Below are positions 14,273 to 14,506 of a DNA stretch of 24,000 nucleotides, in pieces. Positions within the stretch are counted from its first letter, which is position 1; every line of letters begins with the position of its first letter. This DNA comes from Frigoribacterium sp. PvP032 (lineage in GTDB: Bacteria > Actinomycetota > Actinomycetes > Actinomycetales > Microbacteriaceae). The position numbers and the translations under genes were made by a program. The notes under the pieces are model-generated. The model was not told the DNA's origin. It did no database searches and saw only the letters and a list, made by a program, of their open reading frames with translations. Where the stretch lies: contig NZ_JAFIBM010000001.1 of assembly GCF_017833035.1 (NCBI RefSeq), positions 2,291,762 to 2,315,761 of the forward strand. Direction: 5' to 3'.

Positions 14273-14374
14273 GGCGGGTTCCCGTAGCTGCCGGCGGGTC
14301 AGCGTGGCGATCGGCGGGTTCGCGTGCCCGGCGGCGGGTGGGCGCCCACCCGCCGCCGCCGACAGGAACCCGCC
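14273..14374 (+). repeat. Phased heptamer array U1: four GGCGGGT followed by two ACCCGCC at exact 20-bp spacing
   Basis: GGCGGGT occurs at 14273, 14293, 14313 and 14333. ACCCGCC occurs at 14348 and 14368. The array contains a perfect 30-bp palindrome, CGGCGGCGGGTGGGC|GCCCACCCGCCGCCG (14329-14358). It sits in the divergent intergenic region between the nuclease-helicase gene and jetA. Confidence 0.9.
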
Positions 14375-14404
14375 GGACCAGCTCGCACAGCCACGAGTGG
14401 GTGC

Positions 14405-14506
14405 GGCGGGTTCCCGTGGCTGCCGGCGGGTTCCCGTGCCGGTCGGCGGGTCGCCGTGCCCGGCGGCGGGTGGGCGCCCGCCCGCCGCCGCCGACGGGAA
14501 CCCGCC
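14405..14506 (+). repeat. Phased heptamer array U2 (tandem to U1, offset 132 bp)
   Basis: GGCGGGT occurs at 14405, 14425, 14445 and 14465. GCCCGCC (1 mismatch) occurs at 14480 and ACCCGCC at 14500. The outer arms CGGCGGGTTCCCGT / ACGGGAACCCGCCG are complementary. The array ends 82 nt before the jetA start. Confidence 0.9.

Follow-up and report, generated by a model that had tools for sequence, protein, structure and literature searches.

Phased octamer arrays beside jetABC of Frigoribacterium as probable copies of a dispersed, modular intergenic repeat

Why does the heptamer GGCGGGT recur at exact 20-bp steps, on both strands, in front of the jetA gene of Frigoribacterium sp. PvP032? The DNA analyzed here (the window) is a stretch of 24,000 nucleotides with a GC content of 73.6%, positions 2,291,762 to 2,315,761 of contig NZ_JAFIBM010000001.1 in assembly GCF_017833035.1. 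Its jetABC operon, 14589..20703 on the plus strand, is preceded by a divergent nuclease-helicase gene and bracketed by two inverted pairs of repeat modules, U1 and U2 upstream of jetA and U3 and U4 downstream of jetC (Table 1). An earlier, sequence-only reading of this DNA took the upstream pair for an iteron-like array within the divergent control region. Comparison with other Frigoribacterium genomes and with metagenome contigs indicates instead that each module is probably a copy of a modular intergenic repeat of about 104 nt that is scattered around Frigoribacterium chromosomes.

The intergenic region between the helicase gene and jetA is 455 bp long and holds two modules, as the sequence-only reading had described, and these are a 132-bp tandem duplication. 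In a repeat comparison 14259-14390 and 14391-14522 are 83% identical, and Tandem Repeats Finder reports the 132-bp period with 1.8 copies, 90% matches and nested 20-bp periods. Twelve GGCGGGT sites had been listed, and 11 of them are exact and stand in strict 20-bp register, eight on the plus strand (14273, 14293, 14313, 14333, 14405, 14425, 14445 and 14465) and three on the minus strand (14348, 14368 and 14500); the twelfth, at 14480, carries one mismatch, and its GCCCGCC variant is common to the orthologous copies of F. faeni and of loci L170 and L181. The window contains 25 GGCGGGT matches, compared with 9.4 +/- 2.8 in dinucleotide shuffles (0 of 100 reach 25), and 21 of the 25 fall within two stretches of about 250 bp. 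The perfect 30-bp palindrome described for the apex of U1 is present, and the modules can fold as hairpins, as had been proposed: single-strand folds are very stable, from -40 to -55 kcal/mol (z = -4.4 to -8.0), which follows from the inverted copies of the conserved word. For U1 the single-strand DNA fold is -47.3 kcal/mol (z = -4.4), and its nhmmer score is 89 bits. The difference in spacer sequence that had been noted between U1 and U2 is mild, 10 differences in 56 spacer positions as opposed to 1 in 48 octamer positions, and becomes strong family-wide. In F. faeni a single core module lies upstream of jetA, and its ortholog in the window is the core of U2, units 3-6. The arrays end 25 bp before the decamer GGTATCGTCG, a -10-like motif containing the TATCGT hexamer to which a promoter role had been ascribed. 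A 40-nt direct repeat, 14206-14245 and 14518-14557 (73% identity, both copies ending in GACGTCGAGC), brackets U1 and U2, and may be due to chance or may be the scar of a flank exchange or a duplication.

A second module pair, in inverted orientation and absent from the sequence-only reading, follows jetC, so the motif is not unique to the divergent region even inside the window. U3 has its ortholog in the single module of the metagenome locus L144, and neither F. faeni nor L180 has a counterpart. Between the outer units of U3 and those of U4 there is a 33-nt inverted repeat with 91% complementarity, 20862-20894 with 21085-21117. The hairpin that lies between the jetC stop and U3 is the locus's own terminator-like structure, independent of the modules. 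Another unique GC-rich hairpin is found at 21174-21227, before the end of the citrate-synthase-like gene, and the two hairpins flank the U3-U4 pair.

The repeating unit is 20 bp long and consists of the octamer CGGCGGGT and a 12-nt spacer, which is free apart from a near-invariant GT five bases beyond the octamer. The unit, CGGCGGGTnnnnGTnnnnnn, is not self-complementary, and palindromy arises only through inverted units. Two forward units followed by two reverse units make up a core, a near-palindrome of about 66 bp in which the forward-to-reverse offset is 15 bp, as it is at 49 of 49 junctions. The family consensus reads CGGCGGGT..c.GTcgc...CGGCGGGT....gt.cg.g..CGGCGGGTtcccGTcgcc..CGGCGGGtggGCGCtgaCCCGCCGc.ggcgaCgggaACCCGCCGac, and 27 of 31 copies align without gaps over 128 nt. 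Expansion is confined almost entirely to one side. The short arm has exactly two units in every complete array except L141, which is 3+3, and the long arm has 2 (the bare core), 3, 4, 5, 6, 8 or 12 units, four being commonest and the 4+2 form most frequent. Extra units within one copy are often identical (L167, L169, L143 and L125), as tandem slippage would produce. The outer units of an array are inverted copies of each other, and the element consequently has terminal inverted repeats, of which the U3/U4 repeat is an example. These are the properties of a dispersed intergenic element with an internal tandem unit that varies in number between copies.

How widely is the element distributed? The sequence-only reading had left it to a genome scan to decide between a dispersed family and a pattern specific to this locus. 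A first scan for three heptamers spaced at 20 bp was too loose and returned at least 120 rows from many phyla, mostly unrelated minisatellites with 10- or 20-bp periods. Among the matches listed, the only true relatives were L042 and L106, two single modules separated by 160 kb on the same Frigoribacterium sp. PhB116 contig, with the 4+2 architecture and the 15-bp inversion offset. The plain minisatellites that happen to bear GGCGGGT (L005, L013, L019, L022, L023, L025, L054, L117 and others) are unrelated to the family and come from Saccharopolyspora, Streptomyces, Pseudonocardia, Chloroflexota, Verrucomicrobiota and Spirochaetota. A family-specific pattern recovered 55 metagenome stretches, many of them separate contigs from the same samples, and a profile built from six modules gave 63 non-overlapping hits, among them 31 distinct full-length copies. 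Clustering by flanks places the copies at 27-28 distinct genomic sites, pooled over Frigoribacterium genomes and metagenome contigs. The family is thus dispersed, in kind the outcome that the sequence-only reading had said would point to a generic repeat, and the notion of a locus-specific iteron-like control region does not survive the finding of the same module at 27-28 unrelated intergenic sites, beside housekeeping genes. The short-read contig L121, the only one with the exact JetA of the window, ends inside U3, and its other end lies inside a different repeat; a break inside U3 is the expected assembly behavior of a multi-copy repeat.

There was no match to the module in the plasmid database PLSDB, the viral contig scan produced one weak chance hit only (L177, 14.5 bits), and there is no support for the arrays having originated as plasmid iterons or as a phage element. 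Rfam gave no family hit in the window at the gathering score, and at E <= 1 only microRNA-hairpin noise, below threshold, in the array region. The octamer string led only to incidental primer matches in the literature, and no description of the family was found in the literature searched. The family is apparently an undescribed intergenic repeat of Frigoribacterium (Microbacteriaceae), similar in kind to repetitive extragenic palindromes (REP), BOX elements and miniature inverted-repeat transposable elements (MITEs).

Nearly every copy lies shortly past the 3' end of a gene or in the gap between two convergent genes, and both orientations occur. At sites where both flanking genes are resolved, 15 arrangements are convergent, 11 are co-directional and one is divergent, and that sole divergent site among the 27 is the array upstream of jetA in the window. 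The gap between a copy and the nearest stop codon is often -8 to +60 bp. Relative to the nearest gene 3' end, the two orientations are about equally frequent (10 versus 8, by manual tally), and a strand-specific RNA role, for example as a Rho utilization (rut) site, is therefore not supported. The neighboring genes are ordinary and mutually unrelated, encoding MetRS, RsmI, HemA, dehydrogenases including ADH, APH, an aminotransferase and transporters, and no neighboring gene recurs. Among 126 flanking open reading frames (ORFs), the 25 commonest Pfam families, with 2-4 ORFs each, are housekeeping families together with DUF3375 from the orthologous jet loci; transposase, integrase, Y1-HUH and FtsK/TraB families are all missing from these 25; families with a single ORF are unlisted, and a lone mobile-element gene may be among them. 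An association of the element with jet or mobile-element genes was rejected, as none was found in the gene families listed around the family loci. Target-site duplication is absent: direct repeats of 3-6 nt, sought at offsets of 0-6 per side in 30 arrays, do not exceed shuffled pairings. The flanks often prolong the palindrome by 3-5 nt. Outside the arrays neither word is in excess, the octamer being observed 22 times with 20.5 expected and GGCGGGT 45 times with 73 expected in 135 kb. At L137 (2992-3757) and L133 (1230-2015), two inverted modules bracket a gene of about 135 codons whose product starts ATGTCCTACGAAGAACCG, in the same plus-then-minus order as around jetABC. Local clusters, with arrays no more than a few kb apart, are found in L129, L135, L175 and L123 as well.

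Is it the sequence of the element that is constrained, or the structure it can form? Column identity over the 31 distinct copies is 98% in the octamers and 71% in the spacers. In 14 orthologous or paralogous pairs, 16 of 672 octamer positions differ compared with 173 of 784 spacer positions (odds ratio 0.09, Fisher p = 5e-33), so octamers differ about 10 times less often than spacers. The extra units 1-2, which the core hairpin leaves unpaired, are part of this pairwise contrast, and their octamers are kept at 97-98%. Base-pair covariation in the core hairpin, in which units 3-4 pair with units 5-6, does not rise above shuffles; the hairpin is 84% paired, and 496 of 500 column shuffles pair as well or better. 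Its spacer pairs are only 32-68% paired. An alternative register, with units 1-2 and their flanks opposite units 5-6, pairs no better, and its covariation is likewise not above shuffles. Octamers and register are kept, spacers drift and covariation is lacking, which argues that the duplex sequence is read by a protein. This pattern in the alignments points to sequence-specific recognition on duplex DNA at two-turn spacing and favors it over a selected RNA or DNA structure. The part of the sequence-only reading that saw an array of protein-binding sites and not a plain duplication is thereby strengthened, and only its assignment to an iteron of the jetA locus has to be given up.

The history of the jet locus in relatives is informative about the array upstream of jetA. 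The comparison set the window beside six further orthologous jet loci of Frigoribacterium; L147, L170 and L181 inform on the upstream side only, and L144 on the downstream side only. In the metagenome loci L147 and L170, jetA is preceded by orthologs of U1 and U2. In L181 (JetA 90% identical to that of the window) there is a half remnant, the right arm only, directly past the stop of a co-directional gene. F. faeni (L178, JetA 82%) has a bare core upstream and nothing downstream of jetC; its core has the GCCCGCC variant and the right-hand junction in common with U2. No module is present at either end in L180, L182 and L183 (JetA 68-69%), with none in about 21 kb of each, and the metagenome locus L144 has one module downstream of jetC. 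The decamer GGTATCGTCG is invariant at every aligned locus, and this conservation supports its reading as the likely -10 region for jetA. After it comes a short inverted repeat, CGTCG-N5-CGACG in the window and TCGTCG..CGACGA in the distant clade; decamer and repeat together (14532-14557) are likely to represent the -10 region and either an operator or a leader hairpin for jetA. Since variable modules stand beside an invariant motif, the arrays are best viewed as labile additions at a conserved promoter. In F. faeni and L181 the copy comes after a co-directional gene of a sugar operon, and the divergent arrangement in the window is therefore secondary. From this comparison, the ancestral state would have been a core copy between the end of the upstream gene and the jetA promoter, as still seen in F. 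faeni. In the lineage of the window this core would have gained units and then been duplicated, the upstream flank would have been swapped for a defense island (Vsr, NERD and the nuclease-helicase), and a second pair would have been inserted downstream of jetC. Such a flank exchange would explain why the site looks like a divergent control region.

Most likely the element is recognized in duplex form by a sequence-reading protein that would bind every second helical turn, and this protein could be an enzyme that mobilizes the element or a host DNA-binding protein. Hairpin or cruciform potential would follow from the inverted arrangement, and the hairpin would add at most generic insulation or termination between neighboring transcription units. 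If structure came first, the GC-rich hairpin would be a bidirectional terminator without a U-tract or a stabilizer of mRNA 3' ends, roles that have been proposed for REP sequences, and the octamers would be merely its stem. We consider this unlikely, even though copies are strongly enriched between convergent genes and close to stop codons, and single-strand folds are very stable; both orientations are also used about equally, which a symmetric hairpin would give. Neither register covaries, the spacer pairs of the core are only partly paired, and units 1-2 retain their octamers with no hairpin partner to maintain. A terminator consensus scan of 14050-14650 found zero terminator-like sites (a hairpin plus a T-run), and no T-run follows any module; a sigma-70 consensus scan of the same interval also found nothing, the consensus being ill-suited to a 74% GC actinobacterium and uninformative for promoters. 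Moreover, a conserved hairpin already follows jetC, and relatives do without the modules. Two other candidates were dropped, a CRISPR-like array, which is unfitting with an 8-nt repeat, 12-nt spacers and no cas genes, and a G-quadruplex, which is unfitting with 17-nt loops.

The element is not a jet-specific operator or a replication iteron. An operator model built on the sequence-only reading, in which a cooperatively bound regulator would set the expression of the flanking defense genes, is very unlikely. It draws on the position of the arrays between two divergent genes, ending just short of GGTATCGTCG, and could add that the octamers are under sequence constraint and that a module is kept at this site in the clade with JetA identity of at least 82%. 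However, the same module occupies 27-28 unrelated sites, mostly gene 3' ends, the same jetABC and promoter motif are found without any array in three Frigoribacterium genomes, the copy in F. faeni and L181 is preceded by a co-directional gene, and the architecture at the site ranges from half a module to two full modules. A broader possibility, which we regard as speculative and improbable, is that the octamer arrays are selected chromosome-wide cis-sites for a machine that binds CGGCGGGT every 20 bp, with a TraB/FtsK-like translocase or a nucleoid- or SMC-related organizer as candidates. If it were true, the bracketing of the JetD-less jetABC by inverted arrays would be functional and not accidental, and with a TraB/FtsK-like translocase the clt-like sequences would make the chromosome mobilizable. 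TraB-type translocases recognize 8-bp repeats through a winged-helix domain. The clt loci described so far consist of 7-9-bp direct repeats and inverted repeats (PMC3583192, PMC4447253). That the arrays are themselves clt-like chromosomal loading sites for a double-stranded DNA translocase of the TraB/FtsK type, belonging to an actinomycete conjugative element, is highly improbable. The clt sites of Streptomyces conjugative plasmids have a word of 7-9 bp in direct and inverted copies within 50-200 bp (PMC3583192, PMC4447253), and here the conserved 8-mer is repeated in both senses within about 100-250 bp; dispersed chromosomal clt-like sequences have already been postulated (PMC3429521, PMC11571958), and the constraint here is on sequence, not pairing. 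By analogy, the reading of clt sites as duplex DNA by a multimeric FtsK-like protein may offer a likeness to what is proposed here. Unlike clt loci, the arrays have no adjacent traB and different words, and a strict 20-bp register is undescribed for clt; no FtsK/TraB-like gene occurs in the window or among the commonest flanking families, there is no PLSDB plasmid match, and the octamer is not enriched outside the arrays. The resemblance is in form only and is no more than an analogy. Finally, it is scarcely conceivable that jetABC arrived in this chromosome on a composite mobile element whose ends are the two inverted pairs. The pairs do bracket jetABC in inverted orientation with long arms outward, jetD is missing, and the small gene in L137 and L133 is bracketed in the same plus-then-minus manner. 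Against this, jetABC adjoins the citrate-synthase-like, CoA-transferase and TctA genes in F. faeni and L180 too; neither has a downstream module, L180 lacks an upstream one, and there is neither a transposase inside nor a target-site duplication. A composite transposon delivering jetABC was rejected on the strength of these orthologous loci without arrays.

Several observations weigh against a scattered repeat read by a protein, and should temper it. The 27-28 sites are pooled over several genomes and metagenomes and are not a per-genome copy number. Members were found through octamer-rich patterns and profiles, which leaves decayed copies under-represented and makes the octamers look somewhat more conserved than they are; comparing orthologous copies lessens this sampling bias without eliminating it. 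Gain or loss of whole units, and not point substitution, may account for some of the spacer differences. Seven loci hold two arrays within a few kb, and in the window and in L137/L133 the arrays bracket a gene or operon in inverted orientation, which is unexpected under purely random scatter. No binding protein or mobilizing enzyme was identified, and the arrays could still have a local effect on expression of jetA or the helicase gene.

The element can be compared with several families of bacterial repeats. The BOX elements of Streptococcus pneumoniae have the form boxA-boxB(n)-boxC, with units of about 45-60 nt. Like them, the Frigoribacterium element is modular, dispersed and intergenic, contains an internal tandem unit in variable number flanked by pairing parts, and has no transposase of its own; unlike it, BOX lacks a short phased word with free spacers, and there is no sequence relationship. 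The iterons of plasmid replication origins are direct repeats of 17-22 bp bound by Rep. The arrays likewise consist of direct repeats spaced by roughly two helical turns, with inverted copies close by, and the resemblance is in period only: the arrays are chromosomal, with dozens of sites, no rep gene in the window, no adjacent origin and no plasmid match. A strict MITE would share the terminal inverted repeats, whereas target-site duplications are absent and no autonomous partner was found, the 25 commonest Pfam families of the flanking ORFs including no transposase. The REP units of Proteobacteria and the bacterial interspersed mosaic elements (BIMEs) built from them, which are mobilized by REP-associated tyrosine transposases (RAYTs), occur in many extragenic copies per genome, often clustered in alternating orientation; the copies seen here, at 27-28 sites pooled over several genomes and metagenomes, are likewise multiple, extragenic and in both orientations. 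REP elements are similarly GC-rich, form stable stem-loops, lie at gene 3' ends and in convergent gaps without target-site duplication, and are known protein-binding sites (PMC2817692). A REP unit, however, is a short imperfect palindrome of 20-40 nt, whereas the 20-bp unit here is not palindromic; the conserved word is CGGCGGGT, the consensus has no conserved GTAG/CTAC foot, and the strict register, the one-sided tandem expansion and the actinobacterial host are further differences. No RAYT (Y1_Tnp) is present in the 25 commonest flanking families, the genome elsewhere not having been searched. BrickBuilt of Porphyromonas gingivalis, a MITE with a 23-nt minisatellite and about 20 intergenic copies per genome, likewise has small inverted repeats at its ends, a narrow range of hosts and, inside, a tandem repeat of about 20 nt whose number varies (PMC4596501), but it repeats whole units without free spacers, has distinct leader and tail subunits and lacks a palindromic core of inverted units. 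The closest design is that of modular elements with an internal minisatellite such as BrickBuilt. The words that serve DNA uptake or polarity, such as the DNA uptake sequence (DUS), the uptake signal sequence (USS) and the FtsK-orienting polar sequences (KOPS), are over-represented across a whole genome, single copies included, whereas neither the octamer nor GGCGGGT is over-represented outside the arrays.

The genes around the arrays are listed in Table 1. The closest JetA is that of Frigoribacterium sp. ACAM 257, with 94% identity. jetD is absent from the window and from four other Frigoribacterium genomes (L178, L180, L182 and L183). In these five loci jetABC is a conserved three-gene system, JetABC/MksBEF only, and always lies beside a variable island, which in the window is composed of Vsr, NERD and the protein with RNase H-like, PD-(D/E)XK and SF1-helicase domains. 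The divergent nuclease-helicase might be a stand-in for JetD. In-frame tandem repeats of 15 and 21 nt occur at the 5' end of jetA (14594-14643), and in-frame repeats of 27-33 nt, rich in D, E and P, near the 3' end of jetB (16870-16972). A second, unrelated dispersed repeat is present among the defense-island genes in the form of palindromes of about 88 nt with the stem AGCGACAAGRCGACG...CGTCGTCTTGTCGCT, at 9024-9111, 9591-9678 and 10606-10693 of the window. Metagenome relatives carry them too, at 7367-7430 of L135 and at 8835-8918 of L147, and the break in the Logan contig L121 falls within such a palindrome.

Table 1. Modules, signals and genes of the jetABC region, in window coordinates
Feature	Position	Strand	Description
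Module U1	14272..14375	+	four forward units, CGGCGGGT at 14272, 14292, 14312, 14332
Module U1, reverse units	14348, 14368		ACCCGCCG; forward-to-reverse heptamer offset 15
Module U1, apex	14329-14358		perfect 30-bp palindrome
Module U2	14404..14507	+	tandem copy of U1, 132-bp period; first reverse site 14480 is GCCCGCC
GGTATCGTCG, likely -10 region of jetA	14532..14541	+	contains TATCGT (14534-14539); outside the element; invariant in 7/7 aligned loci, with arrays or not
Hairpin after jetC	20759..20816		unique; kept in L144, L178, L180
Module U3	20867..20970	-	2 forward + 4 reverse units on the + strand; 164 bp past the jetC stop
Module U4	21009..21112	-	tandem copy of U3, 142-bp period, 88% identity
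Vsr gene	9141-9617	+	Pfam
NERD gene	9693-10613	-	Pfam
RNase H-like / PD-(D/E)XK / SF1-helicase gene	10693-14133	-	Pfam
jetA (DUF3375)	14589-16193	+	Pfam
jetB (DUF4194)	16190-17041	+	Pfam
jetC (SMC-like ATPase)	17038-20703	+	Pfam
Citrate-synthase-like, CoA-transferase and TctA genes	downstream of jetC	-	Pfam

To take the arrays for a tailor-made control region of a Wadjet-like operon is tempting and wrong, and the conserved GGTATCGTCG region is the better focus for understanding jetA expression. The family has an unusually clean anatomy, built from an octamer and a free 12-nt spacer in strict 20-bp register, with a fixed 15-bp inversion offset and one-sided expansion. As a practical marker, the element is a locus of the variable-number tandem repeat kind, a cause of assembly breaks and a possible substrate for recombination at the edges of defense islands. 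Its strong signature of constraint at the level of sequence is a good handle for finding the protein that reads it.

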